Positions 2,687-52,900 of a DNA stretch of 64,000 nt are shown here, one piece after another. The DNA comes from Oscillospiraceae bacterium (lineage in GTDB: Bacteria > Bacteroidota > Bacteroidia > Bacteroidales > WCHB1-69). The notes beneath the pieces are model-generated. The model saw nothing but the letters and a program-made list of their open reading frames with translations, did not search any database and was not told the DNA's origin. Location of the stretch: positions 82 through 64,081 of the forward strand of contig CAVCMI010000006.1 in assembly GCA_963603365.1 (NCBI GenBank). The letters run 5' to 3'. A program made the position numbers and the translations under genes. Every line of letters begins with the position of its first letter. The stretch's first letter is position 1.

Positions 2687-2707
2687 GGCTGAGATTTAAG
2701 TGTTCGA

Positions 2708-20508: not shown

Positions 20509-20544
20509 CAAAGCCTTACGATTTCGTGATACGAAAAAAGTGCG

Positions 20545-20552
20545 CAAAAATA
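20545..20552 (-). promoter_or_regulatory. Candidate Bacteroidota -7 promoter box (TATTTTTG) for the receptor operon
   Basis: The reverse complement of caaaaata matches TAnnTTTG, about 37 nt upstream of ATG 20508. The same GTATTTTTGCGC context recurs at 25222. Confidence 0.35.
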
Positions 20553-23303: not shown

Positions 23304-23639
23304 TTAGAAGTTGTAATATTCCATTCGTGCAAAGTCGCTGCTGTAATAGTCAACCATTTGCCGCTCCAAAGGGGTCGCGGTTTCTTCAGGTTGTGTCACT
23401 TCGATCTGCTTTTCGTTGACGATGGGCTGCTGTTCCACGCCCGAGGAAACGGTTCTGTAAACGAAAGTGCCGCAGATGACAAGGGCAAGGGCAGCGGCCA
23501 CGCCGGAGAGTTGGAAAATCCGACGTTTTGTCTTTTCTTTCCTGATTCTGTTCATTACCTGACCGGGCAGATTGTTGAAATAGCCCTCGGGGATCTGGTA
23601 GTTTTCCTCTTTGGGCAGGTTGTTCAAGTCTATATCCAT
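23304..23639 (-). CDS. Putative anti-sigma factor, single-pass membrane protein
   Basis: 111 aa. Short N-terminal region, then a TM helix (LSGVAAALALVICGTFVY). Lies directly downstream of an ECF sigma gene. Confidence 0.5.
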   Translation of the reverse strand: MDIDLNNLPKEENYQIPEGYFNNLPGQVMNRIRKEKTKRRIFQLSGVAAALALVICGTFVYRTVSSGVEQQPIVNEKQIEVTQPEETATPLERQMVDYYSSDFARMEYYNF

Positions 23640-23684: not shown

Positions 23685-24242
23685 TCAAAAAGTTAAACGC
23701 TCAGATATTTTTTTCTTGATTTTTTCTGCGGCGAAGTGGTAAGAGGCTTTCAGCGCGCTTTCGGACGTGTCGAAGATCTTGGACATTTCTGCGTAAGGGG
23801 TCTCGTCATAGTATCGCATCGTGAATACGGCGCGTTGCTTTGGAGGAAGTCTAAGTATTTCTTCCTGAAGTATTTGTTGTATTTCGTCCGGTGAGATGAA
23901 ATTCGTTTCGGGCTGGCTCACGACAAGGAAGTCGGCATAACTGTCGTCGGTGAGGTTCAGGGTCTTTTTCTTTTTCTCTATGAATGTCAACGCTTCATTT
24001 ACGGAAATCTTCGTTATCCAGGACTTGAGGCTTGATTCTCTGCGGAAATTGTGCAGGTTCTGCCAGATTTTGATGAAGACGTTTTGGGTGACGTCATTCG
24101 CGTCTTCGTGGAGGGAGACGATGCGTCTCGTGTTGAAATAGATGGTTTTCTGGTATTTTTTCACCAGCAGTTCAAAAGCCTGTTCTTTGGTCTTGCTGTT
24201 TTCGAAAAGGGCAAGGATGAAATCGTCAGACGCTTCTGGCAT
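23685..24242 (-). CDS. RNA polymerase ECF-type sigma factor
   Basis: 185 aa. Region 2 (TIYFNTRRIVSLHEDANDVTQNVFIKIW) and region 4 (PYAEMSKIFDTSESALKASYHFAAEKIKK). Confidence 0.85.
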   Translation of the reverse strand: MPEASDDFILALFENSKTKEQAFELLVKKYQKTIYFNTRRIVSLHEDANDVTQNVFIKIWQNLHNFRRESSLKSWITKISVNEALTFIEKKKKTLNLTDDSYADFLVVSQPETNFISPDEIQQILQEEILRLPPKQRAVFTMRYYDETPYAEMSKIFDTSESALKASYHFAAEKIKKKISERLTF

Positions 24243-28200: not shown

Positions 28201-28719
28201 GTGTCCATGCAGCAAGTCGTACTGAAAGGACGTGTCGGGAAAAGTCTCGCTTTCCATACCACTTATGAGCATCAGGAGACGGGGAACCAGTCGGAGCAGA
28301 TGTCCACACGATGCTACACGATAAGGCAGCACAGGGTAGGCGAAGAGGTCCGGTATCAGTTCCGTAATGTCTTGAATATGTCTCTGGAGTACAGTTACGG
28401 CAGCAAGCGCAACCGTTCGGGCATTGAGCGGATTTGGACGCACAGTGCACTGCTGGAAGCAGCAGGACGTTTTGCCGAACGAGGTACGGTGACGTCTTCA
28501 CTGCAGTATGTCTATGCCGGCGGCAGGATAGAAGAGAGCAACACCGTTTCGTACCTGATGATGAACGGCCTTTCGCTTGGTCAGAATGTCCTGTGGAAGT
28601 GCGACTGCCGCATCTCCGTCACGGAATATATGCAATTGTCTCTCCAGTATGAAGGCCGGAAAACGCAGGGCAACAAATCCGTGCACACAGGCGCCATGAC
28701 GGTAAAGGCCATGTTCTGA
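25276..28719 (+). CDS. Large secreted beta-rich protein of unknown family, probable outer-membrane barrel, encoded upstream of porP
   Basis: 1147 aa with no competing long ORF. N-terminal hydrophobic signal ([18 protein letters not shown]). Alternating beta pattern throughout. C-terminal ...TVKAMF aromatic end typical of OMPs. Confidence 0.55.
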   Translation: [1147 protein letters not shown]

Positions 28720-29059: not shown

Positions 29060-30112
29060 ATGCTTATAAGGTCTCGTATAATCCGATGTGCAATTCTGCT
29101 TGTGGTTATCCTTTCTGCCGTGAAAGTCAGCCAGGCGCAGGACGATGCGCAATTTACGCTTTTCCCGTGGGCTTCTTCTTATTACAATGCCGGAGCCATT
29201 GGTGAACAGAGCAATACGTTATGCTTTACAGCCCTTTACAATAACAAATACACGGGTTGGAGTGATGTTTACACGAACGGAGATTCGTTGAAGAAAGACA
29301 AGACTGCACCGCACGATGTTCTTATAAACATAGAGTCATATCTGAAGAAACTGAAAGGATCGATCGGCTTGTCGCTGGTCAACGACGTAATAGGATATTA
29401 CAACAACATTGGGGTCAAGCTCGGTTATTCGTACAAGTTGAGGATAGCGGGCGGTCATTTAGGCATCGGCTTGCAGGCCTCGCTATACAACCAGAATATT
29501 TCAAAGGACGGTTTCCGTCCCATCCAGACCGGCGACCCGGTGATTGACAACCTCGGAGAATCGACGATGGACCTTGACTTCAACTTCGGGGTCCAGTACA
29601 AATGCGACCAATGGCATGCCGGCATCAGTTTCACACAAATTGCCAGCGCCTTTGACAAGAACCATGCTTTGAGAGTCTCGGGCGAGAAGAATGCCGTGAA
29701 CCGTACCCCGCAAATGTACGTACATGGCGGTTATACGTGGATAGTGCCGGCAAACCCGAGTTGGGAGGTTATGCCTTACGCGATGGTGAAGACGGATTTC
29801 AAGACCTACCAGATAGACATTATGGGGCTGGTAAGGTACAACGGCATATTCTGGGGCGGTGCAGGCTACCGCATAAACGACAACATCAACCTTATTTTCG
29901 GCGCGCGCCCGTTCTACAATTCTTCCAACGTATATCTCAAAGGCCTGGAGGCGGCACTCAGTTACGGCATCACGGCTAACAAATTGGGATACAAACCGAA
30001 CCGCAGTTTCGGCGACATTGAAGTCATGGTGCGCTACTGCTTTGACATATACAAGCCGGAAATATTCTCGGGTTATGGGTCAACACGTTACATCTACAAA
30101 AATCAGTACTGA
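29060..30112 (+). CDS. porP: T9SS outer-membrane protein PorP/SprF family
   Basis: 350 aa. Signal peptide, then QDDAQFTLFPWASSYYNAGAIG (PorP/SprF N-terminal signature). Positioned directly upstream of porK, as in the porPKLMN operon. Confidence 0.85.
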   Translation: MLIRSRIIRCAILLVVILSAVKVSQAQDDAQFTLFPWASSYYNAGAIGEQSNTLCFTALYNNKYTGWSDVYTNGDSLKKDKTAPHDVLINIESYLKKLKGSIGLSLVNDVIGYYNNIGVKLGYSYKLRIAGGHLGIGLQASLYNQNISKDGFRPIQTGDPVIDNLGESTMDLDFNFGVQYKCDQWHAGISFTQIASAFDKNHALRVSGEKNAVNRTPQMYVHGGYTWIVPANPSWEVMPYAMVKTDFKTYQIDIMGLVRYNGIFWGGAGYRINDNINLIFGARPFYNSSNVYLKGLEAALSYGITANKLGYKPNRSFGDIEVMVRYCFDIYKPEIFSGYGSTRYIYKNQY

Positions 30113-30164
30113 GAAAAAATAAATCAGCATCATCAACGTTAGAAAAATCATAAATACGATAAAA

Positions 30165-31595
30165 ATGAAAAGGTTAATTATTATGCTCGCAGTGACAATG
30201 GTCGTGCTGTCGTCTTGCAACAGCGGCGGAGACGGCCAGCTTGTCGGAGTCAAGGACCGTCCTGACTTCGTCGACCTCGAACCATACGGAATGGTGTATG
30301 TACCCGCCGGTCATTACGTCATGGGGGGCGGCGACCAGGATGTGCCGTTCGCATTGACTCAGCAGTCCAAGAACGTCACGGTAGGTGCGTTCTGGATGGA
30401 CGAAACTGAAATCACGAACAACGAGTACCGCCAGTTTGTCTATTGGGTCCGCGACTCGATTGCACATGTCCTGCTGGGAGACGCCGAAATCGAAGATGCC
30501 GAGAAATACGGCCACTACAAGAAATATGTGAGCGGCGAGAACGAGGGCGAGGTGATAGAACCCAAGATTATCAACTGGAAAGAAGAGATCCCGTGGGATT
30601 CTGACAACGAGGAGGTGCAGGCTGCACTCAGCCCGCTTTTCAATAAGGTGAACACAAGGTTTTACCATTACCGCCCGAATACGACCAACGTGTCGATGTA
30701 TAATTTCGAGTATTGGTGGTACGACTTCCGCAATTACCGCGACCCTAAAAACCCTGAGGAGTTCGGTGCCTCTACAAAGGAGTTTGACAAGGACGCTTCC
30801 GACTACGGCGGTCTCTACTGCAACCGTCCGAGCAGTGTAGGCACGGGTTACCAGCGCTTCATCAAACACGAGGTGGTCAATATTTATCCCGACACGCTGT
30901 GCTGGGCCCACGACTTTGTCTATTCGTACAACGAGCCTATGGTGCTGAACTATTTCTCGAACCCGCAGTACGACAACTATCCTGTTGTCGGCGTCAGCTG
31001 GAAGCAGGCCAAGGCATTCTCATATTGGAGGACAATGCTTCGCATGTCATGGCTTTCCACAAAAGAATACGCCAACGAGCACGATTTCAGGCTGCCATCC
31101 GAAGCCGAATGGGAATGGGCCGCACGCGGCGGCAACTCCCTCGCTTCCTATCCCTGGGGCGGTCCCTACACCACCAACAGCAACGGCTGCTTCCTCAGCA
31201 ACTTCAAGCCTCAACGCGGCAACTACATCGCTGACGACAACCTCTATCCAAGCATCGTGGCCCACTATTACCCGAACGACTGGGGGCTGTTTGACATGAG
31301 CGGCAATGTGGCAGAATGGTGCGAAGACGCTTTTGACAAGTCTGCCACGAACTTCACGCACGACATGAACCCGCAATATACATATTATGCCCGCAAGGAC
31401 GACTCTCCTGCCAAGAAGAGAAAAGTCATCCGCGGCGGTTCATGGAAGGATGTCAGCTATTACACGACCGTCTATGCCAGGTCGTACGAGTACCAGGACA
31501 CTTGCAAATCATACGTTGGTTTCCGTAACGTCCAGGCTTTCATGGGACGCCAGAGAGGCGACAACTCATCACAGAGCGCATCACATGTTTATTAG
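30165..31595 (+). CDS. gldK: T9SS lipoprotein PorK/GldK (SUMF1/FGE-like domain)
   Basis: 476 aa. Lipobox VVLSSC. Blocks RLPSEAEWEWAARGG and RGGSWKD. Confidence 0.9.
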   Translation: MKRLIIMLAVTMVVLSSCNSGGDGQLVGVKDRPDFVDLEPYGMVYVPAGHYVMGGGDQDVPFALTQQSKNVTVGAFWMDETEITNNEYRQFVYWVRDSIAHVLLGDAEIEDAEKYGHYKKYVSGENEGEVIEPKIINWKEEIPWDSDNEEVQAALSPLFNKVNTRFYHYRPNTTNVSMYNFEYWWYDFRNYRDPKNPEEFGASTKEFDKDASDYGGLYCNRPSSVGTGYQRFIKHEVVNIYPDTLCWAHDFVYSYNEPMVLNYFSNPQYDNYPVVGVSWKQAKAFSYWRTMLRMSWLSTKEYANEHDFRLPSEAEWEWAARGGNSLASYPWGGPYTTNSNGCFLSNFKPQRGNYIADDNLYPSIVAHYYPNDWGLFDMSGNVAEWCEDAFDKSATNFTHDMNPQYTYYARKDDSPAKKRKVIRGGSWKDVSYYTTVYARSYEYQDTCKSYVGFRNVQAFMGRQRGDNSSQSASHVY

Positions 31596-31649
31596 AAAAA
31601 TAAAATCACTATTTATTAATCATCAATCAAATCTAAATTCAATTAAAAA

Positions 31650-32372
31650 ATGAACGCAATTAACAGATTAGTTAGAACTAACGGGTACAAGAACTTTATG
31701 GCAAAACTGTATGGTTGGGGTGCCGCAGTGGTTATTGTAGGTGCATTGTTCAAAATTCTGCACTGGCCGGGCGCTAACCTTATGCTTATGGTCGGTATGT
31801 TCACGGAGAGTGTGATTTTCTTCCTGTCAGCATTTGAACCGCCTCACGTTGAGTTCAACTGGTCTTTAGTATATCCTGAACTTGCCACCGGCGAAGAGAC
31901 GCCGTCAGAATCCACGAAGAGAGAGAAGAAAAAACAGATGCAGGGCGCCAGTGCCACACAACAGCTGGACAAGATGCTCGAAGAAGCCAAGATCGGCCCC
32001 GAACTGATTGAAAGCCTTGCAACAGGCATGAGAAACCTCAGCGACAATGCCAAGAAACTTGCAGGCGTTTCTGACGCTGCAGTTGCAACGGACAGCTTTG
32101 TGGGCAATATGACCAAGGCCGCCGAGTCTGTACGCAACCTCACCCTCAAATACGACAAGGTTGCCGCCTCTCTCGACACCGACAGCAACGCTTCTGCTGC
32201 TTACCTTGAAAGCCTCAAGAAGGCCACCAATGCCGTGAACCAGCTGACAGCCGCCTACGAGCAGACCACCAACTACAAGGCTGAAATGGACAAACTGACC
32301 AAGAACATCTCTTCTCTCAGCACCATTTACGGCAATATGCTGGCAGCTATGGGCGTTCACCCCGGCAAATAG
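31650..32372 (+). CDS. gldL: T9SS motor component PorL/GldL
   Basis: 240 aa. Two N-terminal TM helices (GWGAAVVIVGALFKILHWPGANLMLMVGMFTESVIFFLSAFEPP), then a helical tail. Confidence 0.9.
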   Translation: MNAINRLVRTNGYKNFMAKLYGWGAAVVIVGALFKILHWPGANLMLMVGMFTESVIFFLSAFEPPHVEFNWSLVYPELATGEETPSESTKREKKKQMQGASATQQLDKMLEEAKIGPELIESLATGMRNLSDNAKKLAGVSDAAVATDSFVGNMTKAAESVRNLTLKYDKVAASLDTDSNASAAYLESLKKATNAVNQLTAAYEQTTNYKAEMDKLTKNISSLSTIYGNMLAAMGVHPGK

Positions 32373-32432
32373 TTTTGAATCATCTAAATCATTTACCTTA
32401 ATTAAATCCTAACTACAATAATACTATAGAAA

Positions 32433-34067
32433 ATGGGAGCAACAAATTGTCCGGAGACCCCGAGACAGAGAATGATCCAGATGATGTATCTGGTCTATAC
32501 TGCAATGTTGGCTTTGAACGTATCCGCCGATATCCTCAATGCTTTCATTGTGGTTGATGACACGCTGCAGACAAGTATGCGCAATACCACCGTCCAAAAC
32601 GGCAATGACTACAACTGGTTTGAACAACAGAAATTGATATTGGGAGAAGCCAAGATCCATGACGCATACGTCAATGCCAAAACGCTCAGAAAAGAGACTG
32701 CTGACATTGTCAATTACCTCGAGAAGTTGAGAAGTGACCTTATTTTCTACGTTGATGGCGACACAATAGCTGAAGTGAAGACGGAAGACGGGAAGAAAGT
32801 GAAACAGACAAAGACTATCGCCACGATGGAGTCCAAGGAAAACTTCGACAAACCTACCGATTTCATGATCAACAAAGGCAATGCTCTTGCCATGAAGAAA
32901 AAGATCAAAGATTACAAAGCCAATGTCCTGAAGATGGTGAGACCCGCAGACCAAAAGAGAATCAGCGCGTTGGTCGGTCTTGATGTTGACACGAAGTTCA
33001 AGAAAGACGGATTTGAACAGACTTGGGAGGAGCATAATTTCGACCATATCATCGCTGCCGCCGCCGTTACACTTATAAACAAGGAAATCGGCGAGATACG
33101 CAACGCCGAGTCTGTTATGCTTGCCTACCTCAAGTCATCCATCAGTGCCGATGACTTCAAGTTCGACCAAGTGTCAGGCCGCGCCATTCCTAATTCCCGT
33201 ATGGTGTTCTCCGGCGACAGTTATGAGGCTGACATCATTGTGGCTGCTTATGACACCAAACAGACCCCGGAGGTTTACTACAAGATGGGCGCTGACACGT
33301 TGACGGAAGCCGGTATTTCATCCGCAACCAAGTTGGAGGGAGAGAACGGCATCGTAAAACTGAAGATTTCTGCCGGCAACCCGGGCGACCAGAAATATGC
33401 CGGCCTTATCAAAATCATGGACCCGAACGGTCAGCCCAAGTATTATGGATTTAAAGACAAGTATTCAGTTCTGAAGCCTTCGGCAACCATTGCTGCAGAA
33501 AAGATGAACGTGCTCTATGCAGGCATCGCGAACCCAGTTTCTGTCTCCGCCCCCGTTGACCCCGGCAAGTTGAGCGTCTCTTTCCCAGGATGTAATGTCA
33601 CGAATGCCGGCGGAGGCAAGTTCAACGTGTCTGTGCCCTCCAATATGATCGGCAAGACGGTTAATGCTACGGTATCCGCCAAATTAGGCGATGCTGCAAG
33701 CAAGAACCTCGGCGCCACGACATTCCGTGTCAAGCGGGTTCCGGATCCGCGTGCCGTGCTCGGCGCCGGCATCCGCGGCGGAAAACGCGCCAAAGCCGAA
33801 CTTACGGCAAACCCCGTGATCCGCGCTACAATGGGCGAGGACTTCGCTTACGACTTGAAATGGAAAGTCAACTCGTTCAGGGTGATCTTTGTCAGCAAAG
33901 GAATGGAAGACCCTGCCATCGCTTGCCAAGGCGGCGCACTCTCCGAAACGGTCCAGAACAAGATCAAGAAGGCCTCAGCCAATACCGTTATTTATTTTAC
34001 CGACATTAAGGTTTCTTCAGAAGCAGGAACCCGCACACTCGACGAGTTCTCCGTACGTATCAGATAA
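32433..34067 (+). CDS. gldM: T9SS motor/periplasmic shaft component PorM/GldM
   Basis: 544 aa. N-terminal signal-anchor RMIQMMYLVYTAMLALNVS and a long periplasmic region. Gene order K-L-M-N. Confidence 0.9.
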   Translation: MGATNCPETPRQRMIQMMYLVYTAMLALNVSADILNAFIVVDDTLQTSMRNTTVQNGNDYNWFEQQKLILGEAKIHDAYVNAKTLRKETADIVNYLEKLRSDLIFYVDGDTIAEVKTEDGKKVKQTKTIATMESKENFDKPTDFMINKGNALAMKKKIKDYKANVLKMVRPADQKRISALVGLDVDTKFKKDGFEQTWEEHNFDHIIAAAAVTLINKEIGEIRNAESVMLAYLKSSISADDFKFDQVSGRAIPNSRMVFSGDSYEADIIVAAYDTKQTPEVYYKMGADTLTEAGISSATKLEGENGIVKLKISAGNPGDQKYAGLIKIMDPNGQPKYYGFKDKYSVLKPSATIAAEKMNVLYAGIANPVSVSAPVDPGKLSVSFPGCNVTNAGGGKFNVSVPSNMIGKTVNATVSAKLGDAASKNLGATTFRVKRVPDPRAVLGAGIRGGKRAKAELTANPVIRATMGEDFAYDLKWKVNSFRVIFVSKGMEDPAIACQGGALSETVQNKIKKASANTVIYFTDIKVSSEAGTRTLDEFSVRIR

Positions 34068-34089
34068 TCTTTATAAAACATCCTTTATT

Positions 34090-35028
34090 ATGAAAAAGTT
34101 CAGTTTGTTATTTTTAGCCCTTGCCGCCTCGTTTTCACTCTTCGCACAGGAAGAGGAAGAGACTACCGGCAGCACCATGAACCAGCCGGTGCGCAAGCCG
34201 GTCGAGTTCAGTTGGGAACAGGTTGACGTGGGCGAGTTTTCTGACCCTGTCGCATACCCTTCCATCCGTCAGGCAGACGTGATGTATTACTACACGGTAT
34301 GGAGAACTATCGACTTGCGCGAGAAAATCAACCACCCGCTCTATTTCCCGACGGAAACAAAAGGCACGTGGAGAAGTCTTTCGCAGGTGATTTTCGATGC
34401 CATGGATGTCCAGAATCCAGAAAAGACGGAAGGCGTGCTTCCAATCTACTCGGATGAGATGTGTACGCTTCCGTTCTCAAGGGACGAATTGAGGGGAAAC
34501 CTCTCTGAAGTGTCCCAGATCCCTGAAATCGACCTCGAAACCGGTGAAGAGATCGGCATGAAAGAGATGATTGTCGAATATGAACCGAAACAGGTCATCT
34601 CCTACAATGTGAAAGAGATATGGTATTTCGACAAACAGGCTTCACGTTTCTTTGTCCAGATCCTTGAAATCGAGCCTATCATTGAACATGAACGCCAAGG
34701 CACCTCCTCCTATGACGAAGAGGGCAGCGGCGACGAGGATGTCAGAGGGGTCATGATGAAGAAAAGGGTAGGGTACATCTACTACAATGAACTCCGTCCT
34801 TTCCTCGCCAAACAGGAGGTCTATAACGTCAAGAACAATGCTCAACGCATTTCATTCGACGACCTGATTACCTGGAAACGCGACTTCACCAGTTTCATTT
34901 ATAAGGAGGCAAATGTCTATGACCGTGACATCGCCGACTATATAGCAAATTCAAGAGACCAGCGCCTCGAATCCGAAAGAATCACTGACAAACTCCGTAC
35001 GTTTGAGAGCGACCTTTGGGAATTTTAG
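34090..35028 (+). CDS. gldN: T9SS periplasmic ring protein PorN/GldN
   Basis: Start set at ATG 34090 (MKKFSLLFLALAASFSLFAQ), because the track start 33889 lies inside gldM. Blocks WRTIDLREKINHPLYFP and VKEIWYFDKQASRF. Confidence 0.85.
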   Translation: MKKFSLLFLALAASFSLFAQEEEETTGSTMNQPVRKPVEFSWEQVDVGEFSDPVAYPSIRQADVMYYYTVWRTIDLREKINHPLYFPTETKGTWRSLSQVIFDAMDVQNPEKTEGVLPIYSDEMCTLPFSRDELRGNLSEVSQIPEIDLETGEEIGMKEMIVEYEPKQVISYNVKEIWYFDKQASRFFVQILEIEPIIEHERQGTSSYDEEGSGDEDVRGVMMKKRVGYIYYNELRPFLAKQEVYNVKNNAQRISFDDLITWKRDFTSFIYKEANVYDRDIADYIANSRDQRLESERITDKLRTFESDLWEF

Positions 35029-42795: not shown

Positions 42796-44883
42796 CTACC
42801 GCAGCAAGGTGACGCTGCCTCGGAGCTGCCGCATGCCGCCTTGCACATCCATATAGTCGATGATATAAACATAAACCCCTGCCGGAGCATGGGAACCGTC
42901 CATGTTGTTGCCGTCCCATCCCGCTGCCGGGTCGTTAGTCCGGAAAACCGTCTTGCCGAACCGCGAAATGACGGTGAAGGCATAGCGTTCGCTGGACACG
43001 AAAGCGTTTACAGGTCTGAATACCTCATTGAGTCCGTCATAGTTGGGCGTGAAAGCATTGGGCATTATAATGGTGGACGCCTGTTGCAGGGTGACATAGT
43101 TGGAAGCGCTGCTTTCTTCAAAGCCGTAGCTGTCGTGACTTTCCCGTGCAACGATGCAGTAGGTAAACTTGGATCCGGTTTCTGACATTTCGGCCACGTT
43201 GTCGGTGTAAGCATTGCGGGGAAGCGGCGGCAGGTCACCGGTAAGTTGCAGGAAACTGTTTTCGTATTCGGTTTTCAGCAGCACTTCGTAATGGCTTACT
43301 TCGCCGTCCCATCCCTCATAGCCTTGCCATTGGAGGTTGCATTGGTGAGCCGCGTCAGTTGTTCCGGAAAGCAGGATATTGTGCGAAATGTTGGAGATGC
43401 CGGATTCTATGCCGCAGTCGCTGCTGATGACACATGTGCGGTAGTAATAGACTTTCGACGTGAAGTCGGCGGTAGTGTCCCTGAATTCATACTCGGCCTG
43501 ATTATTGTAGGGCAGTTCGGCAATGGGCGTGAAACTGATGCCGTCGTCGCTTCGATGCAGCAACAGTTTTTCGAACGGATAATCATCGCCGGAGGTGTGT
43601 ACCTTGACGGTGATGTATGCATTGTCGGTGACGGATACGGAGCGAATGTAGGTTTCGTCGGGGGAGTCTTCATTTTCGATGCGGAAGTTCATGCGGTTGC
43701 TGCTTGCCGTGATGCTGCTGTCTTGGTTTACGGCGCGAACGAAAGCGCGGTACTCGATGCCGGTTTCAAGGTTTTCGAGTGTAAAATCCGGCGTGGCAGC
43801 GTTGCCGGCGCAGCGGTATGTGGCTCCGCCGTCCGTGCTGAGGAAGATGCGGTACTCCAGAAGACCGCCAGACATGTTGGCATAGCCTCCCCAGTGCAAC
43901 TGCGCGCTCTTGCGGCAGGCATCCGTTGCCGGCGTGGCCAGCACCATGTTCGACTGCGGTTCTTCGGTCATGTTAGAGCAGTTGTTGCAGGAGTCGAGGA
44001 CGGCGATCTTGTACCCGCGCTGCTCTGCGGAGGGGTTCAGCGCGGGGTCGGGCCATTGTGTGGCGTTGAAGACCGTGTCCAAAAAAACGCCGCCGCCGAT
44101 GCCGTCATCCTGATATACGATATAGGCCCACATGTAAGGTTCGGCACTGTGGAAACCTAACAGCACGGTATTGTCCTCTGTTACCGAAACACTGTCGAGA
44201 GCCGGCACCAGGGGCTTTATGTTGTCGTAGAGTTTGATGGTTTTGATCTTCGATGTGAAGTAGCAGGCATTGCTGCCAGAGGTGCTGGTGTGGTTGGTGA
44301 TGCCGATCTGGTAAGAGATATTGCGGTTGCATACGTCTGAGGTGTCAAGGAACGAAGGGGCAGTGTTGGTGAAGGGGATGGAGGCCACGGGTGACCGGTA
44401 GTCGAAATCCTCTTCGAACTCCCGTTTCTTGTAAACGCAGTAGCAAGAGTCCCAAGTCGCACTCATAGTGCCGTTGGTGAGCGCGGGCCACTCGAGGAGC
44501 GCGCCGCTGCTGTCGCGGCCGTCAATGGTGCGCGGGGTGACGGTGAGGCTCAAGGTGGTTAGCGTGTTCGACCTTACGCTGTCGGTGCTGCTGCTGTTTT
44601 TGGCCATGATGTGACACGAATATGTCTCTGCCGTGGAGGAGAGTGCGATCCGCGTGTTTCCGATAATCACGGCTGCCGACTGGTTGAGCGTGGCGGCTTT
44701 TGTGCCGTTGATGTAGATGTCGTAGATGTCAGAGCCGACGTTGCCCGGATTGTCCCAAGTCCAGGAGATTTCCAGCTGTGTGTTGTTTGTTACGGGCTTT
44801 ATGCACTGAAGAACGGGCGGTTCTACGGCAAAAGCTCCCTTCAAGGAAAGAAGAAGTCCAAGAATGGCGAGTGTTTTCTTCAT
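42796..44883 (-). CDS. Secreted multi-Fn3/Ig-like protein with T9SS type B C-terminal sorting domain
   Basis: 695 aa. Signal peptide. Repeated beta-sandwich-like segments. The C-terminal 91 aa match the gliding-motility-associated CTD pattern (MPNAFTPNYDGLNEVF...GWDGN...GVYVYII...GSVTLLR). Confidence 0.8.
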   Translation of the reverse strand: MKKTLAILGLLLSLKGAFAVEPPVLQCIKPVTNNTQLEISWTWDNPGNVGSDIYDIYINGTKAATLNQSAAVIIGNTRIALSSTAETYSCHIMAKNSSSTDSVRSNTLTTLSLTVTPRTIDGRDSSGALLEWPALTNGTMSATWDSCYCVYKKREFEEDFDYRSPVASIPFTNTAPSFLDTSDVCNRNISYQIGITNHTSTSGSNACYFTSKIKTIKLYDNIKPLVPALDSVSVTEDNTVLLGFHSAEPYMWAYIVYQDDGIGGGVFLDTVFNATQWPDPALNPSAEQRGYKIAVLDSCNNCSNMTEEPQSNMVLATPATDACRKSAQLHWGGYANMSGGLLEYRIFLSTDGGATYRCAGNAATPDFTLENLETGIEYRAFVRAVNQDSSITASSNRMNFRIENEDSPDETYIRSVSVTDNAYITVKVHTSGDDYPFEKLLLHRSDDGISFTPIAELPYNNQAEYEFRDTTADFTSKVYYYRTCVISSDCGIESGISNISHNILLSGTTDAAHQCNLQWQGYEGWDGEVSHYEVLLKTEYENSFLQLTGDLPPLPRNAYTDNVAEMSETGSKFTYCIVARESHDSYGFEESSASNYVTLQQASTIIMPNAFTPNYDGLNEVFRPVNAFVSSERYAFTVISRFGKTVFRTNDPAAGWDGNNMDGSHAPAGVYVYIIDYMDVQGGMRQLRGSVTLLR
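42799..43071 (-). other. Segment encoding a T9SS type B CTD (TIGR04131-like)
   Basis: PNAFTPNxDGxN...WDG...G.Y.Y...G.vtLlR pattern read in the translated sequence. Confidence 0.75.
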
Positions 44884-46211
44884 AGGGGTTTCAGGTTGTC
44901 GGTTTTTCCAACGACGATTCTTGCGAAATTATTGCATTCGAAATACTTTTGGGCCAAAGACTGCAGCTGTTCTGGCGAGATGCTCCGTATCAGGCGGATG
45001 GTTTCGGTAAATTCGCGCTCGTCGGTGCCGTGATGATGCCAGAATGAATATTTTTTGGTGTAGGAAACGGAATTTTCAACACTGCGGAGCATCTCACCCA
45101 GGAGGTAGTTGCGGGCAGACTCCAGTTCTTCGCCGCTGATCGTTGTCATCCTCAGGCGTTCAGTCTCTTCGAGACAGGCATCGACGGCGTCTTGGGTGTG
45201 TTCAGCGTTGACGTCGCTGTTGATGATGAACAGCGACTGGCCGCCGAAATAGACGGAGCCTGCCGACACGCCATAGGTATAGCCGTTCCGCTCTCTGAGG
45301 TTCTGCATCAGACGTGAGCCGAAGTAGCCGCCCAGCACGGTGGAGAGGATGGAAAAACCCTGCCGGTCGGGGTGCATATAGCCTATGCACGGCATGCAGA
45401 GCGTGATGGACGACTGTACGCTTCCCGGCATCTCTTCGGCAATGACAGGCGAGCGGTCGGCGGGCATCTGTATATGCGCCAAGGGCAATGCCGGTTGCCC
45501 ATGAGGCACTTGGGCAAACAGGCCGCAGATGCACGCTTCGGTGTCGCCGTCTAAATTGCCGGTGATGAAAAGGCTCAGGTTCTCAGCAATGAAAGTGTTG
45601 CTGTGAAATGCCTCAATGTCTTGTACGGTGACGGCTTGAAGGTTTTCGCGTGTGGAGAATTGCCCTGCCGTAAGCCCGTCGCCGAACATGGCGTGGAGCA
45701 TAAGCCGGGTGTTGCGCACATCGTTTTTTTGCGAGTTGTATTCAAGGTCTTTGATCTTGAGTTGCTTGTAACGTTCGAGGTTCTCCTCCCGGTAGTAGGG
45801 TGAAGCCATGCAGCGGTAAACCTTCGGCAATACGGTCGGCACGTTGCGTTTGGGCACGGTGAGGAGCATCGTGGTTTTGTCGAGGGTTTCCGACACGGTT
45901 AGATAGGCCCCGTAGAAGTCCATGAACGCCGACATCTCGTCGGAAGTGCAGTCGGGCGAGCTCTCTTTCAGGAGCGCGTAGGCGAAGAGGGCGGTGTGCT
46001 TGGTCTGCTCATAGAGGATGCCGGTGCGTATGGAGACTACAATGTGGATGAGTTCCAGCTGGCTGTTGTCGAAGAGGAGTGCCGGGATGCCGTTCGGGAG
46101 CGTCTGTTGCCGCGGGGCGGTGAGGCGGAGGTCTGTGACGGGGTTGAGCGGGGGAGGTGCAGTTCTGTCTATTTGTTGCATGATGTTATCGGATGAGTAG
46201 TATTTGACCAT
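44880..46211 (-). CDS. M16 (pitrilysin) family peptidase homologue with degenerate zinc motif
   Basis: 443 aa (alternative ATG at 46181). M16 two-domain layout. The position of HxxEH reads HTALF, so the Glu and the second His are absent. ATGA overlap with the downstream gene. Confidence 0.7.
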   Translation of the reverse strand: MVKYYSSDNIMQQIDRTAPPPLNPVTDLRLTAPRQQTLPNGIPALLFDNSQLELIHIVVSIRTGILYEQTKHTALFAYALLKESSPDCTSDEMSAFMDFYGAYLTVSETLDKTTMLLTVPKRNVPTVLPKVYRCMASPYYREENLERYKQLKIKDLEYNSQKNDVRNTRLMLHAMFGDGLTAGQFSTRENLQAVTVQDIEAFHSNTFIAENLSLFITGNLDGDTEACICGLFAQVPHGQPALPLAHIQMPADRSPVIAEEMPGSVQSSITLCMPCIGYMHPDRQGFSILSTVLGGYFGSRLMQNLRERNGYTYGVSAGSVYFGGQSLFIINSDVNAEHTQDAVDACLEETERLRMTTISGEELESARNYLLGEMLRSVENSVSYTKKYSFWHHHGTDEREFTETIRLIRSISPEQLQSLAQKYFECNNFARIVVGKTDNLKPL

Positions 46212-47091
46212 GTTCGGTGCCCGACTTGCCTTCGGCGGTTCGGTATTTCACGGTATAGACATACACGGACTGCGGCAGCGGGTCGCCGGTGTCAAGGCGT
46301 TTGCCGTTCCAGCCCTGGTCGATATGTTTGGAGCTGAAGACGTTTTCGCCGTTTCGGGTGTAGATGTCGAGTTCAAAGAAAGTGCATTGCTCGCTGCATT
46401 GCAGCAGGAAAAGGTCGTTGAGGCCGTCGTTGTTGGGGGTGAAGGCGTTTGGTGCTATGAACAGCCGCGTCGGCTCTGCGGCGGGCCCGGGCGCAGGTTC
46501 GACAGTGTCAGGGGCGGTTTCTTGGATGCCGGCGTCGGCTGCTTTAGGCTGCAGTTCGGAGAACGGCAGCGGCTGCAACGGCTTTACCGGCGGGACGCTC
46601 TTGCTGACGCCAGGCGAGAGCGGCTTGAGGCTGATGTGTTGAGTTCCGTTGCCCGGGGCCGGAACAGTCTGGGCGGGGCGGCTGCTGTTGTCGGCGGCTT
46701 GTGCCCGAGGTGTTGCAGTTGTGGCAGCAGGGGCTGCATCTCTCTCTTTGTGGACGGTTGCGGCGGCTTTTGTCTCCAGTGGGGAATGGGCAGTCGTTGC
46801 TGCTGTTGTGCAGTCGTTGTCAGCGGATGTTGCGGGCGTGGCTTGCGCCGAGGGCTGAGCATGGCCGGCAAAGGTTGTTGCGGCGCGTTGCGGGCGCGGC
46901 AGGGCAATGCACAGGGCTACGGCAACGGCAGCTATGGTGATGCAAGCCGTTCCGAAGGGCAGGAACTTGCGCAGTTTGCGTATGCGCCGGTTGCGCTTCA
47001 ACGCGGAGTCGCGGTCAAGACGTGCCCACCCGGCCTCATCTATGGGCGGACGGTATGCTTCAAATTGTTCTTTCAGTGTCTTCTTGTTCAT
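46186..47091 (-). CDS. Anti-sigma-like single-pass membrane protein carrying a T9SS type B C-terminal sorting domain
   Basis: 301 aa. ATGA overlap with the ECF sigma stop. N-terminal 40 aa with PPIDEAGWARL (compare YPFKEAAWDSF in ORF 138-707). TM helix FGTACITIAAVAVALCIAL. Ala/Pro/Thr-rich linker. C-terminal 92 aa APNAFTPNNDGLNDLF...GWNGK...SVYVYTV...GQILLIR. Confidence 0.7.
   Translation of the reverse strand: MNKKTLKEQFEAYRPPIDEAGWARLDRDSALKRNRRIRKLRKFLPFGTACITIAAVAVALCIALPRPQRAATTFAGHAQPSAQATPATSADNDCTTAATTAHSPLETKAAATVHKERDAAPAATTATPRAQAADNSSRPAQTVPAPGNGTQHISLKPLSPGVSKSVPPVKPLQPLPFSELQPKAADAGIQETAPDTVEPAPGPAAEPTRLFIAPNAFTPNNDGLNDLFLLQCSEQCTFFELDIYTRNGENVFSSKHIDQGWNGKRLDTGDPLPQSVYVYTVKYRTAEGKSGTEHGQILLIR
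46189..46464 (-). other. Segment encoding a T9SS type B CTD (TIGR04131-like)
   Basis: Same pattern as 42799-43071, read directly in translation. Confidence 0.7.
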
Positions 47092-47645
47092 ATATTGTAT
47101 TCTTCGTGATTCAAATAGCGTCTTATTTTCTGTTTCAGGATGTTTCGTGCCCTGAACACCAGTGTCCGCACGTTTGTGGGGGTTTCGCCCATCTTCGTGA
47201 CTATGTCATCATAGTCCATGCCGTCAATGACATACAGGTTGAAGGCTATGCGGTATTTGTCGGGCAGTTCGTTGATGAATGACACGAGCTTTGCCATAGA
47301 GAGCGTTTCCTCGCCGGTTTTGATGTCTGCGGCGGCGGGTTCGCAGGTCAGGTCCTCGAGAGGCATCTGCCTGGTGCGCTGGCATTTGCGGTAGTGGTCG
47401 ATGGCCTTGTTCACGGCAATGCGGCGAAGCCAGGCCTGCAGCGAGGTGATGTTCTCGAAACGGCGGAAGTTGACCAAGATGAACAGGAACGTGTCGTGGA
47501 AGAGGTCTTCGGCCTCCTCCGGCGAGGCGGCATACCGCATGCAGATGCCCCGTATGGCAGGGCCGTACTCCAGATAGAGTTGCCTCTGGCTTGCTTTGTC
47601 GCCCTCCATGCACCCTTTTATCAGTTGTCGTTCTTTCTCGGACAT
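47088..47645 (-). CDS. RNA polymerase ECF-type sigma factor
   Basis: Start set at ATG 47645 (MSEKERQLIKGCMEGD). Region 2 (RQLYLEYGPAIRGICMRYAASPEEAEDLFHDTFLFI) and region 4 (DYDDIVTKMGETPTNVRTLVFRARNILKQK). Confidence 0.85.
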   Translation of the reverse strand: MSEKERQLIKGCMEGDKASQRQLYLEYGPAIRGICMRYAASPEEAEDLFHDTFLFILVNFRRFENITSLQAWLRRIAVNKAIDHYRKCQRTRQMPLEDLTCEPAAADIKTGEETLSMAKLVSFINELPDKYRIAFNLYVIDGMDYDDIVTKMGETPTNVRTLVFRARNILKQKIRRYLNHEEYNI

Positions 47646-47738
47646 CGTGCGGTTGTTCTTTCTGTTGACGATTGTTGACGCTTTGCGTTGCAGTCTGCCT
47701 TTTTTTTTGTTGTTTTGCAACCTTGTTTTTCCTTTGGA

Positions 47739-48483: not shown

Positions 48484-48491
48484 TAATTTTG
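48484..48491 (+). promoter_or_regulatory. Candidate -7 promoter box (TAATTTTG)
   Basis: Matches TAnnTTTG 67 nt upstream of ATG 48558. It lies in sequence paralogous to the promoter region of the giant gene. Confidence 0.35.
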
Positions 48492-48557
48492 CGCGTTCGT
48501 TCCGGGGGAGGCAATGATGCACAAAGCGGCACAGCACACGCCCGGCGGCACAACGCT

Positions 48558-49631
48558 ATGCAAATGAAACGTCTCACACTCTTCGCGCTCTGCCTTCTCT
48601 CGGGCGCAGGCTATGTTTCAGCTCAAGGACCCTATCAGTTCCCGAATGCCGACTTTGAGAGCTGGGTCTCCACCGGCAGCGGCAATGCCGTGCCCGCCCA
48701 CTGGCACTCGTTCAGCAATATGCAGTGCGACTTGACGTTGGGCATAGGCTGCGGCACGGCCATGAAGAACCACAGCGACCGCATTGCACGCCCGAACGGC
48801 GGCTATGCCCTCCAGATCTACGCCAAAAGCGTTCTGGGCATCATTGCCAACGGCGCTATGACCACAGGACGCACCCGTGTGGCAAGCCTTAACGCCGGCA
48901 GCCCCGAGAACTACAATTACGACCCTGCGGGCTACCGCTGGCCTTTTCACGGCCGCCCCGATTCCATTGCGTTCCTTGCCCGCAGCAGCGGCGGCATCTC
49001 CGGCAACGCCCTCTTCAAGGTGTTCATACACGACGGCCGTACCTATTACGACAAGGCAAACGGCGACTTACAAGGCACCTGCTACGGGCAGATGATCATT
49101 GCTTTCCATCCCACCTCCCACTGGAAACGCTTTGCCAAGAAAGTTACCTGGACCGGCTCTGCCGCGCGCCCGAGCCTGATTCTCGGCTCTTTCTCGACCA
49201 ACGAGAAGGCCGGCGGAGGCTCCAGCAGCGACAAACTCGATGTGGATGCGCTGCGCTGCATCTACGACAAGGGGCTCTCTTCGCTCTCTGTTGACGGCGT
49301 GAACCAACCCGGCATGCTTGATGCCTTTAACTGTGCCGAGTTTGCCACCCACGACGGACTCACCCACGACGGATCCAACTCGGGCATCGCCTCCGCCCTC
49401 TATGTGCTCCCCGCCGACTTCAACACAAGCAGTGGCTTTCCGCTGGTGCGCGCAGAAAAACGCTCTCCGCTTGCCACTTCCGTTATGGTGACGCAGGCCA
49501 CGAAAAGCACCCCCCAAGCCACCATTACGGTTACCCACAACGACGGCTCCGCCTTTACCTACATTGTCCGTTTCGCTCCTTCACGCACATCTGCCGAAAC
49601 AGCAATGCTCTGCCGCCCCGGTGGGGAGTAG
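48558..49631 (+). CDS. Secreted stand-alone paralogue of the giant protein N-terminal domain (PCMD-like, putative carbohydrate-binding)
   Basis: Start set at ATG 48558/48564 (MQMKRLTLFALCLLSGAGYVSAQ). By eye, roughly two thirds of residues are identical to residues 1-335 of ORF 49930-60513 (QFPNADFE.W, GGYALQIYAKSV, ARSSGGISGNALFKVFIHDG, ATITVTHNDGS). No CTD. Confidence 0.6.
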   Translation: MQMKRLTLFALCLLSGAGYVSAQGPYQFPNADFESWVSTGSGNAVPAHWHSFSNMQCDLTLGIGCGTAMKNHSDRIARPNGGYALQIYAKSVLGIIANGAMTTGRTRVASLNAGSPENYNYDPAGYRWPFHGRPDSIAFLARSSGGISGNALFKVFIHDGRTYYDKANGDLQGTCYGQMIIAFHPTSHWKRFAKKVTWTGSAARPSLILGSFSTNEKAGGGSSSDKLDVDALRCIYDKGLSSLSVDGVNQPGMLDAFNCAEFATHDGLTHDGSNSGIASALYVLPADFNTSSGFPLVRAEKRSPLATSVMVTQATKSTPQATITVTHNDGSAFTYIVRFAPSRTSAETAMLCRPGGE

Positions 49632-49929: not shown

Positions 49930-52900
49930 ATGAAAAAATTTACATTGTCAGCCCTCTGCCTGCTCTTTGTAGCAGCCACGGCTTGCGCCCAGGGCGTTTA
50001 CCAGTTCCCGAACGCAGATTTTGAAGAATGGACCTCTTATGACGACGGCAATGCCGTGCCCGAACTATGGCACACGTTTAATACAATGCAGTGCGACTTG
50101 TTGATAGGCTGCGCCACGGCCAAGCAAAATCACAGCAACCGTGTAACAAGAGACGGCGGCGGTTATGCCCTCCAGATCTACGCCAAAAGCGTTTGGGGCA
50201 ACATTGCCAACGGCGCCATGACTACGGGGCTAACAAGAGTAGGTTCTACAACTCCGTCCAGTAATGAAAACTACAATTACGACCCTACGGGCTACCGCTG
50301 GTCTTTTCACGGCCGCCCCGACTCCATCTCTTTTTATGCGCGCAGCAGCGGCGGCATCTCCGGCAACGCCCTCTTCAAGGTGTTCATACACGACGGCAAC
50401 ACCTTTCAAGATAAAGCAGACGGCAGTTTGTCTGGGACATCATACGGCAGTATGATTTATGCTTTTCACCCCACCTCGTCGTGGGGGCGGTTTGTCAAGG
50501 AGGTTTCCTGGACAAACACCACTGCTACGCCGCAGCTGATTTTAGGTTCTTTCTCCACGAATGAGGCGGCAGGAGCGGGTTCCAGCAGCGACAAACTCGA
50601 TTTAGATGCGTTGCGCTGCATCTACGACAAGGGTCTGGCCTCACTCACCATTGGCGGCGTGAGTCAGGAAGCCATGTTGGCCACGTTCAACAATGCGGAG
50701 TTTGCCACCCATGCGGGGCTTACGGGCAACCGCACCAACTCGGGCGCAGCTGTCGCCACCTGTACGCAGCTGGTATGCTACACCTCCGACAGCGACTTTC
50801 CGCAGGTGAGCGCCACCAAACGCTCTCCGCTGGCCACCTCCATCACCGTAACACAGGCCACAATGAGCGACCCAAAAGCTACCATCACCGTCACCCATAA
50901 CGACGGTTCAACCTTTTTATATACCATATATTTCAGTGCCCATCGGCAACCTGCCACGCCGGTAATAACCACGGCGGGCAATGTGCATGCCTGCTGCGCC
51001 ACGGATGCCCTCACGCTGTCGGTATCCAACCCCAGCAACAATGCCATCCAGTGGTACCGCTTCGGCGAGCCCATCACGGGCCAAACTTCCAACAGTCTCA
51101 ACGTTTCCTTCGAAAGCCAGACTGCCGCCTCGCAGACTTACGAATATACCTGCAGGATCGACAGCAGCGGCTGCACCGCCACCTCGCAGGTCTATGCCGT
51201 GACGGTTGACTATGTGACGCCGCTCTCCAGCGCCACCGTTGCCCCCGCGAGCATCTGCGGCGCCGGCACGGTAACGTTTGCCGCCACTACTACCGCCAAC
51301 CAGGTGGTAGTATGGAAACACAACGGCATAGTGGCAGACTCCGCCATGGTGAACGCCGGCAGTGCGCGCACTTTTACGCACACCTTCACGGAGAATGACG
51401 CCGCCGGCATTTACACATACGAGTGCTATTCCAAGAATACTGCCGGATCCAACTGCCACAGCAGCGTCCGCAGCGTGGAGGTTACGCTGAATGAGATACC
51501 CGCCGCACCTGCGGTCTATTCCGACTCGCGCTGCGGGGCAGGGGAAATCTCGCTGTGGGTTTCAACCTTAGACATGGGCGACTCTGACATCTTCAGATGG
51601 TACGACAGCCCGAGCGGCGGCTCACCGCTCGCCACCGCAAACAATGACGGCAGAACCTTTACAACGACGATAAGCCAGACCACCACATTCTATGTGGAAC
51701 GCTACAATATGGCTACAGGCTGCGTGAGCGCCCGCACCGAGGTGGAGGCAAGAGTCATCACTTCTGTGCCTATGCCTACTGCCACGGTTACATCCGTGAC
51801 GCTCTGCGGGCCTGACGCTTCAGTTGAACTGGAAGCCACGCCAGCGCCGCAAACATATATATTATGGTACGCCGATGCCGATGGGCAAGATGTGGTCTTT
51901 CAAGGTTCCGTCATGTCCGTGTATGGGTCAGACGAGCCCTCCGTGCGCACTTTCTATGCTGCCGGCCATCTTGAAGGATGTCCCAGCGAGCGTTTGGCCT
52001 TCACCGTCACCACCAATGCCGTGCCCGACTTTCCCGAGGTGGTTAATGTTGGCCGCTGCGGTGCCGGCGAGGTGACATTAGAGGCTAATGGCGCCGGCAC
52101 AATCTATTGGTACGCCACCCGAGACACTGACGAGCCGATAGCCACGGGAGAGACTTTCACCACGACCATCTCGCAGACGCAAGCCTTCTTTGTGGCCGCA
52201 CGTTCTGAGGCCGGCTGTTTTAGCGGACGTTCGGAAGTTTATGGCTTTGTGCAAGAACTCCCCCAGGCGCCGCTTACGACAGACCAGTCCTATTGCGGCG
52301 CGCAGACCGTCACGCTTGATGCCAACAGCAACTATGAGCTTTCGTGGTTCAGCGATGAGGAGGGCACGCTGGCGTTGAACAGCACTGAGCAGGCCGTTTC
52401 ATCCACCACCACATTCTATGCTTTTGCCATCGACCCTCAGACCTCCTGCCGCAGCGTTGCCGCTCCGCTCACCGTGACCATCCATCCGGTGCCGGGCGTG
52501 CCCGCTACTGCCTCGCAAGTTTGTCTTGCCGGCGGCCGCATAACCCTGACGGCCGAGCCTGGAACGAACGCTACGGGCTGCTACTGGTACTTGCCCACAC
52601 AAGGGACTGTGCAAGGCACGACCTACACAACCCGCACAGTGGGCACCTACAGTGTATCTTCGTACAACGAGCATTGTGAGAGCGAATCGGTACAGGTTGT
52701 GGTGAACGCCACTCCGGACGCTCCCGTTGCCTCAGGAGACGAGCGTTGCGGTGCCGGCACTGTCATGCTGAAAGTCCAAAACCCGTCCGATGCCGCTTCT
52801 TACCTCTGGTATGCCCAGGCCCAAGGCGGCGAGCCGCTCTATACAGACTCTGCTTTCACTGTTGCAAACCTGCAGACTACCACCACCTATTATGTGGCTG

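Follow-up and report, generated by a model that had tools for sequence, protein, structure and literature searches.

Can a secretion signal act as the sensor of a transcription factor? This question is raised by two overlapping genes in a stretch of 64,000 nucleotides (nt) from a Bacteroidales genome (contig CAVCMI010000006.1 of assembly GCA_963603365.1), which is called the window below. The first gene codes for an extracytoplasmic function (ECF) sigma factor, and the second for a membrane protein of 301 amino acids (aa) that ends in a C-terminal domain (CTD) of type B, a type IX secretion system (T9SS) sorting signal. An earlier note, made from the window's sequence, had located both open reading frames (ORFs) with their ATGA overlap and had proposed that a working T9SS gates the release of sigma. 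We found the two genes just where the note had placed them, its interpretation is supported in part, and the pair of sigma and membrane protein is widespread and unannotated. Our favoured reading is a sigma/anti-sigma pair whose sensor would be a tethered type B signal, with the T9SS as its gate; as a whole this model is tentative, and we hold it at slightly below even chances.

The elements of the gene pair, including the single transmembrane (TM) helix of the 301-aa protein, are located as follows.

47667..47692, minus strand: ECF-type promoter candidate TGCAAC-N16-CGTC, which ends 21 nt 5' of the sigma ATG
47088..47645, minus strand: gene of the 185-aa ECF sigma factor, whose only domains are sigma2 and sigma4
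46186..47091, minus strand: 301-aa TM-CTD protein, second gene of the operon, directly after sigma
46966..47091, minus strand: its cytoplasmic N-terminal module, residues 1-42, a candidate sigma-binding (anti-sigma) element with two short helices and a basic juxtamembrane segment
46897..46965, minus strand: its single TM helix, residues 43-65, a predicted signal anchor with the N-terminus inside (from hydrophobicity, charge and AlphaFold2, AF2)
46477..46896, minus strand: its disordered Ala/Pro/Thr-rich periplasmic linker, residues 66-205 (from AF2 and composition)
46186..46476, minus strand: its T9SS type B CTD, residues 206-301, with the stop codon (from TIGR04131 and PF13585)

The TGA of the sigma gene and the ATG of the 301-aa ORF share the ATGA overlap. 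The claim of the note that this ORF ends in a type B CTD has held well. The C-terminus reached 48.7 bits against TIGR04131 (cut-off 35), in a match that covers positions 3-84 of the 85 in the profile, and 65.1 bits against CHU_C (PF13585; cut-off 27). The TIGR04131 match lies at residues 213-300 of 301, and a score above the curated cut-off at the extreme C-terminus is what defines a T9SS type B CTD. In the AF2 model this part is a beta-sandwich with a predicted local distance difference test (pLDDT) value of 95-98, and Foldseek matched it to immunoglobulin (Ig)-like sandwiches, the PorU CTD and the translocon-bound NucA CTD among them. Judged by these matches, the C-terminus is a complete and genuine type B CTD. 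For the remaining parts of the protein, Pfam and NCBIfam gave no match.

If such a protein is more than a peculiarity of one genome, then we can ask: How far does its family extend, and what is conserved in it? An initial homology search gave 13 full-length relatives with 28-98% identity, from which a profile was built for an exhaustive HMMER search against 1.84 billion cluster representatives (50%-identity clusters). At E<=1e-30 this search detected 110 proteins; among its best 150 matches, about 130-140 were full-length proteins of 276-375 aa with the same architecture. The closest relative, with 98% identity, is encoded in GCA_963632565.1. Public databases name the family proteins solely by their CTD. 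A scan of a genome collection with the full-length profile returned mostly generic type B CTDs; only the loci L005, L006 and L058 were informative, and the species of the window was not recovered. The L058 member (2123-3753) is a divergent protein of 347 aa which has a small extra beta-rich segment between linker and CTD, and its gene overlaps the sigma gene by ATGA.

The topology signals are the same in the window protein and in the family. Residues 1-42 of the window protein end in the basic run RNRRIRKLRK, and residues 43-65 form an uncharged span (Kyte-Doolittle 2.44) with a net charge of +8 ahead of it and +2 behind. The AF2 model, based on a 125-sequence alignment, has helices at residues 6-12 and 19-26, with block-mean pLDDT of 74-91 across residues 1-30, and then an unbroken helix 29-63 passing through the membrane. 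The linker, which has about 140 residues and a composition of A 21%, P 15% and T 12%, shows no secondary structure in this model, with pLDDT of about 50-60. Across the family the TM helix begins near residue 46 in 142 of 144 representatives, where the net charge is +4.7 on its N-terminal side and -0.3 on its C-terminal side; the median length of the uncharged span is 23 aa (at least 18 aa in 98%), and an N-terminus of median 44 residues precedes it. These two lengths indicate a signal anchor with the N-terminus inside rather than a cleavable signal peptide, and the predicted topology places the CTD in the periplasm and the N-terminus in the cytoplasm. A conserved AXA cleavage site after the TM helix was not found across the family. 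An unusually long cleavable signal peptide was also considered, and it was ruled out by the 23-aa median span, the conserved 44-aa N-region and the lack of a conserved cleavage motif. By these sequence features the protein lacks the cleavable N-terminal Sec signal peptide of canonical T9SS cargo.

The four regions of the protein have been conserved to a different degree. Identity is highest in the CTD (62%), reaches 46% in the N-terminus and is lowest, at 26%, in the linker, the length of which is held nevertheless (median 152 aa, interquartile range 146-162, in the 109 representatives where it could be measured). The Bacteroidota O-glycosylation sequons D[ST][AILVMT] are not enriched in the linkers (0.72 versus 0.57 per linker). 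In the 125-member alignment the CTD hallmarks P214, F217, P219, W261 and G263 are invariant, and elsewhere in the protein W22 alone is invariant. CHU_C is matched by each of the 125 members and a known anti-sigma domain by none of them; the CTD is located at the extreme C-terminus in all members.

The neighbourhood of the gene is constant as well. Wherever the DNA upstream of the TM-CTD gene could be read, it contained an ECF sigma gene, whose end lies at -7 to +14 nt relative to the TM-CTD start. About 17 loci with 20-98% identity were counted here: the window, L001/L002, L004, L005 (a metagenome-assembled genome, MAG, of Bacteroidales from horse faeces), L006 (a rumen MAG), L058, L085-L087, L088, L089, L090, L092/L093, L094 and L095. 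The note had listed a lack of conserved pairing in related genomes as a result that would speak against it; the pairing is strongly conserved, which excludes chance. We also built a 48-position hidden Markov model (HMM) of the N-terminal module from 155 family members and ran it on 5,810 local ORFs; its matches were confined to sigma-adjacent members of the family. Of the word-index searches with N-terminal profiles, one gave only short fragments and another gave nothing.

The sigma factor itself is conventional. Profile scans gave 83.4 bits for TIGR02937 (cut-off 42.9), 59.7 for Sigma70_r2 (PF04542) and 46.8 for r4_2 (PF08281), and with sigma2 and sigma4 domains only, in a length of 185 aa, the protein falls within the ECF group (group 4) of sigma-70 factors, which have about 170-200 aa. 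Its nearest solved relatives are AlgU, SigH, SigE and SigW, by which it is classed with the AlgU/RpoE/SigW type. Sigmas of this type are bound by single-pass anti-sigmas and released through regulated proteolysis.

Upstream of the sigma gene, TGCAAC-N16-CGTC has the classic shape of an autoregulated ECF promoter, and it probably functions as one. In the whole 64-kb window the pattern TGYAA-N17-CGTY has a single match, which is this site. Of 12 family loci, 5 have the related pattern AA[CGT]-N16-CGT at -42 to -45, whereas shuffled sequences gave 0.29 on average and at most 3. The ATG at 47645 is the likely start of sigma, because the promoter falls within the longer ORF that starts at a TTG. 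A scan of the window for further regulon members gave no similar site 5' of any other gene; matches with one mismatch were at chance level in number and lay inside genes. In L058 a TGCAAC element like a -35 is present upstream, without the CGT -10 element.

The note had described a two-gene unit. The pair is real, but it opens a four-gene operon with overlapping starts behind the promoter candidate. The other two genes of the operon, and the T9SS genes of the window, are these.

44880..46211, minus strand: M16-like pseudo-peptidase, 443 aa (433 aa from the ATG at 46181), with Peptidase_M16_C
42796..44883, minus strand: secreted fn3 protein of 695 aa with its own type B CTD (CHU_C, TIGR04131, fn3), the T9SS cargo of the operon
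29060..30112, plus strand: outer-membrane protein of the PorP/SprF family, first gene of porP-K-L-M-N (PF11751 117.5 bits; TIGR03519 128.6 bits, cut-off 90.55)
30165..35028, plus strand: porK/gldK, porL/gldL, porM/gldM and porN/gldN (FGE-sulfatase of GldK type, GldL_N, GldM domains 1-4, GldN)

The third gene of the operon codes for a protein in which Peptidase_M16_C alone exceeds the cut-off (109 bits), while Peptidase_M16 reaches 14.3 bits against a cut-off of 22.3. The zinc motif HxxEH, which peptidase family M16 carries in its N-terminal domain, is absent from all seven orthologues and has H-T-A-L-F at the equivalent place; none of the seven has a signal peptide. The best relatives in the PDB are the inactive M16 proteins 3gwb and 3amj_B. 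By these features the protein is classed as cytoplasmic and catalytically dead. Its gene lies directly after the TM-CTD gene in the window clade, L005, L088 and L094. Two starts are available, and both are kept in L087: with the ATG at 46211 the gene shares 26 nt with the one upstream, and with the ATG at 46181 it begins 4 nt past the upstream stop. In L094 (1760-4782) the order is an active M16 gene (HLMEH), ECF sigma, TM-CTD protein and the inactive M16-like gene. This arrangement suggests that the M16B-like pair is functionally tied to the sigma/TM-CTD module.

The fourth gene overlaps the M16-like gene by ATGA at its start. Its product of 695 aa (N-terminus MKKTLAILGLLLSLKGAFA) has a signal peptide of cleavable type and scores 53.5 bits for CHU_C, 40.7 for TIGR04131 and 36.9 for fn3. 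Orthologues of this cargo were found in L002-L006, L085 and L087, and in the same loci the four-gene cassette is kept down to 25% identity. In L090 (5429-12960) a type B cargo is also co-operonic, and it is a different cargo.

Does the organism possess the machine for which both CTDs would be signals? Clearly it has a T9SS: at a distance of 12 kb downstream of the sigma cassette, the opposite strand carries the core operon porPKLMN (29060-35028, plus strand). No copy of the promoter motif is present upstream of porPKLMN, and no porP-like gene was found within the sigma operon. An adjacent porP/sprF-like carrier gene is frequent for type B cargo and not universal. The PorP of the window has no Cys-x-Cys C-tail, in which it resembles the non-gliding P. 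gingivalis type. From published work, type B CTDs are recognised by carriers of the PorP/SprF family, stay uncleaved and remain bound to the carrier (PMC9143113), and orphan type B CTDs that use a shared distant carrier are known (PMC12618676). Porphyromonas gingivalis has a single PorP, whose gene heads porPKLMN; at the PorK/N ring this PorP binds PG1035, the only type B protein of the species, in a 1:1 complex (PMC9143113). By analogy with these partnerships, the PorP of the window is a candidate carrier for both type B CTDs (PMC9143113, PMC12618676). Five conserved CTD motifs are required in the secretion of SprB (PMC12618676). The step that requires energy is ejection of the carrier-substrate complex from the translocon, and carriers can be driven mechanically (PMC12635249). 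A CTD can also have a regulatory role as a signal in the periplasm, upstream of an ECF sigma, even when it has an inner-membrane tether (PMC12152298).

How do these parts fit together? We consider it quite probable that the 301-aa protein is the cognate anti-sigma factor. The genomic evidence points to such an interaction because the position next to sigma is invariant across loci, because the N-terminal module with its invariant W22 is conserved and occurs, among the local ORFs, only in sigma-adjacent proteins, and because sigmas of the AlgU/RpoE/SigW type are controlled by single-pass anti-sigmas. With somewhat less assurance, we think that the CTD of this protein communicates with components of the T9SS, since it is the most conserved region and its invariant hallmarks have counterparts in SprB that are required for secretion (PMC12618676). 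The whole reading gains support from a linker conserved in length while its sequence is not, from a type B cargo in the same operon (window clade and L090) together with porPKLMN in the window, and from an ECF-type promoter with a single copy in the window and counterparts at the same position in 5 of 12 loci.

The proposed switch would work in the following way. The 301-aa protein would sit in the inner membrane, where its head of 42 residues, with two helices and the invariant Trp, would hold the co-translated sigma. The linker of about 140-150 residues, with a contour of about 45-50 nm by our estimate, would be ample to cross the periplasm and would let the CTD reach PorP or the translocon. 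There the CTD would be recognised by the type B route, that is, by a PorP-family carrier and/or the translocon, and capture by a working, energised system would strain or expose the tether. The anti-sigma would then be cleaved or destabilised, as in the regulated proteolysis of RseA-type or FecR-type anti-sigmas. Freed sigma would transcribe its own operon from TGCAAC-N16-CGTC, including the 695-aa cargo and the M16-like protein, and fresh anti-sigma would reset the switch. By this logic, type B cargo would be made only while its export route works. Sigma binding, contact between CTD and PorP, proteolysis and the direction of the switch are proposals here, and that the direction is the one just described seems doubtful to us. 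It is purely a guess that the dead cytoplasmic M16-like clamshell may bind the released N-terminal fragment.

A stronger form of the switch can be imagined, in which the T9SS of the outer membrane captures the CTD or has it threaded through, the N-terminus remains in the inner membrane, and ejection driven by PorLM-PorKN pulls the tether and frees sigma. We regard this form as unlikely. If true, one polypeptide would span the whole envelope as a mechanically gated secretion checkpoint, and the dead M16-like clamshell would be a cytoplasmic accessory for the released anti-sigma fragment. It would also be the first anti-sigma that is a T9SS substrate, and the first T9SS substrate anchored in the inner membrane.

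Several observations weigh against the favoured reading. The note had described the 301-aa protein as anti-sigma-like, a description for which the N-terminus gave no hit in Pfam or NCBIfam at E<=1 and no sequence match in the PDB. The segment ahead of the basic juxtamembrane helix has only about 28 residues. The T9SS acts only at the outer membrane and cannot pull a protein out of the inner membrane, and the translocon might be blocked by a substrate that is tethered. Among the products of the operon there is neither a site-1 nor a site-2 protease, and the M16-like protein is cytoplasmic and catalytically dead. The PorP of the window lies 17 kb from the cassette and lacks the Cys-x-Cys tail of moving carriers. 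The CTDs of the candidate anti-sigma and of the cargo do not co-vary (28-44% identity, no diagonal enrichment), and the cargo gene is not adjacent in L092. No CGT -10 element was seen in the most distant family loci. Finally, all family members come from metagenomes or MAGs.

Three other explanations should be considered. According to the first, the 301-aa protein is an anti-sigma whose CTD works as a sensor in the periplasm only, as that of PorA does, and never crosses the outer membrane. The CTD would bind a periplasmic face (PorP, PorE, PorK/N or another) or compete with free cargo CTDs for the carrier, so that sigma activity would report carrier occupancy or cargo build-up and not secretion success, and the direction of the switch could be opposite. 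No polypeptide spanning both membranes is needed here, the second type B CTD of the operon could compete for the same carrier, and PG1035 offers a precedent by its 1:1 complex with PorP at the PorK/N ring (PMC9143113). However, a conserved spacer of about 150 residues exceeds what a partner at the inner membrane would need, every hallmark essential for secretion is kept, and the nearby genes code for neither a sensor kinase nor another periplasmic partner. The missing promoter motif 5' of porPKLMN likewise implies a regulon unlike feedback on the T9SS machinery. We judge this explanation unlikely.

The second explanation takes the 301-aa protein for a product of the sigma regulon and not for the anti-sigma, with sigma controlled otherwise. 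The protein would be an anchored or unconventionally exported stalk, possibly a structural link between the inner membrane and PorP or the T9SS. The lack of homology to known anti-sigma domains and the very short cytoplasmic segment fit this explanation; a CTD on a spacer of conserved length would also suit a structural tether, and PG1035 is thought merely to stabilise or cap PorP (PMC9143113). Yet the place right after sigma is invariant in about 17 deeply diverged loci, which is the classic layout of sigma and anti-sigma genes, and the cytoplasmic module with its invariant Trp is better conserved than the linker. The operon holds no other anti-sigma candidate besides the 301-aa protein, while sigmas of the AlgU/RpoE type normally have a single-pass anti-sigma partner. 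On this evidence the second explanation is decidedly improbable.

The third, that the CTD is a generic ligand sensor derived by co-option from an Ig-like fold, with a purely historical likeness to type B signals and no remaining interaction with the T9SS, draws on the many generic Ig-like, PKD and fn3 beta-sandwiches among the Foldseek matches, but it is very improbable and is contradicted by the retention of all hallmarks in 125 divergent members, and also by a PF13585 score above that of the operon's own cargo (65.1 versus 53.5 bits), nearly full coverage of TIGR04131, the extreme C-terminal position in all members and the co-occurrence with type B cargo genes and porP.

What would the favoured reading mean for the biology of these bacteria? 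To our knowledge, the regulation of the T9SS is largely unknown beyond Porphyromonas gingivalis (PorXY-SigP-PorA). In this family a transcription factor would be joined to a T9SS sorting signal by a simple module of two genes, which is spread over gut, rumen and environmental Bacteroidales-like genomes. Through the gene pair, the state of the secretion machine may be coupled to gene expression, and the pair bears on how the expression of type B cargo, for example adhesins, is matched to the supply of PorP/SprF carriers. As a working rule, CTD proteins are soluble periplasmic intermediates cleaved by Sec, and the 301-aa family departs from this rule. The module makes it testable whether a CTD is recognised from the periplasmic side, by which component, and whether the energised machinery exerts force on its substrates; it could also serve as a natural reporter of T9SS activity. 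The note knew of no described anti-sigma with a T9SS CTD, and we found no such paper either, in a literature search that was incomplete and gives absence of evidence only. The novelty of a CTD as a regulatory signal is limited by the precedent of PorA-PorY-PorX-SigP, where a CTD acts upstream of an ECF sigma (PMC12152298).

The window contains two further ECF sigma genes. The second (712-1272, minus strand) is followed after 4 nt by a gene for a single-TM protein of 189 aa without a known domain (138-707, minus strand), and a gene for an OMP_b-brl_2 outer-membrane barrel (1450-2097, minus strand) lies just upstream of it. The third (23685-24242, minus strand) is followed by a single-TM ORF of 111 aa (23304-23639, minus strand) and then by a secreted protein of 171 aa without a family hit (22762-23277, minus strand). 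The note had assigned these two small ORFs the same layout as the 301-aa protein and had proposed an EA(A/G)W motif in common with ORF 138-707. It is true that each is a single-TM protein after a sigma gene and that the letters EAGW/EAAW are present, but homology with ORF 138-707 was undetected, and the HMM of the N-terminal module gave no hit there even at E<=10 in the set of 5,810 ORFs.

Other genes deserve a short description. Directly 5' of porP lies an ORF of 1147 aa (25276-28719, plus strand) with zero Pfam or NCBIfam hits, which could be an unrecognised T9SS-associated protein. A giant protein of 3527 aa (49930-60513, plus strand) has many internal repeats and a CTD of type A (Por_Secre_tail, 52.7 bits). 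Immediately 5' of its gene is an ORF of 380 aa (48489-49631, plus strand), which is 67% identical to the first 340 residues of the giant, has no CTD and is either a duplicated N-terminal domain gene or a remnant. Tandem DUF5689 paralogues (15335-16630 and 16645-17910, both minus strand) lie downstream of an ORF of 873 aa (17926-20547, minus strand) without a Pfam or NCBIfam hit.

It remains to compare the module with known systems. As a type B protein, the 301-aa protein resembles the PG1035-PorP-PorE and SprB-SprF systems (PMC9143113, PMC12618676, PMC12635249), since its CTD is expected to stay uncleaved and bound to a PorP-family protein, and porP heads porKLMN here as in P. gingivalis. In contrast to this protein, PG1035 and SprB carry cleavable signal peptides and end on the cell surface; neither has the cytoplasmic head of 42 aa and the TM anchor, and the 301-aa protein is always encoded behind a sigma gene.

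The nearest precedent for a CTD as a signal is PorA, from the Porphyromonas gingivalis cascade PorA-PorY-PorX-SigP (PMC7712824, PMC12152298). With an inner-membrane tether PorA continues to signal, and its CTD serves as a signal upstream of an ECF sigma (PMC12152298). However, PorA has a type A CTD on a normal Sec-exported cargo, and its cascade is a two-component relay whose regulon is the T9SS machinery, whereas our candidate anti-sigma has a type B CTD in direct fusion, and the cargo operon to which it belongs seems to be its regulon.

Among anti-sigma factors, class II proteins of the CnrY/NepR kind (PMC6101532) have a very short two-helix element that binds sigma by clamping sigma2 and sigma4, and in CnrY a TM segment follows. 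The predicted helices 6-12 and 19-26 ahead of helix 29-63 might form such an element; there is no sequence similarity, and a clamp on sigma would be hypothetical here. CnrY differs in that it senses by its periplasmic partner CnrX and not by a secretion signal.

The pairs RseA-sigmaE, MucA-AlgU and RsiW-sigmaW stand close to our module on the side of sigma, which is nearest to this group, and also by a co-transcribed single-pass partner with the N-terminus inside and a periplasmic sensor. The class I domain, a three-helix bundle with a fourth helix, needs about 80-90 aa, whereas the cytoplasmic part here has only about 42 aa and is too short for a four-helix domain. No zf-HC2, RskA or ASD class I anti-sigma domain was found in the window protein or in the 125 members. 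The sensor is a T9SS CTD, and proteolysis is only proposed here.

The FecR/FecA/FecI systems, including the SusC-linked pairs of Bacteroidota, also combine an ECF sigma with a single-pass inner-membrane anti-sigma, whose periplasmic C-terminus is proposed to contact an outer-membrane beta-barrel and to relay its state inward, and their regulon is a small adjacent operon. The FecR domain (PF04773) gave no hit in the window protein or in the 125 family members; with this domain and the class I domain both absent, membership in either group is denied. There is no TonB-dependent transducer here, the cytoplasmic module of about 42 aa is far shorter than that of FecR, and the periplasm holds a disordered spacer and a secretion-signal domain whose proposed partner is a T9SS carrier or translocon.

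The analogy with FlgM-sigma28, which the earlier note had drawn, stands for the logic and not for the mechanism. In both cases a sigma inhibitor bears the export signal of a machine whose late substrates are controlled by that sigma. Yet FlgM is soluble and leaves the cytoplasm wholly through the type III secretion system, whereas the 301-aa protein has an inner-membrane anchor and the action of the T9SS is confined to the outer membrane. Sigma can therefore not be freed here by exporting its inhibitor physically. In mechanism, trans-envelope signalling of FecR type and regulated proteolysis of RseA type are closer to the module than FlgM.

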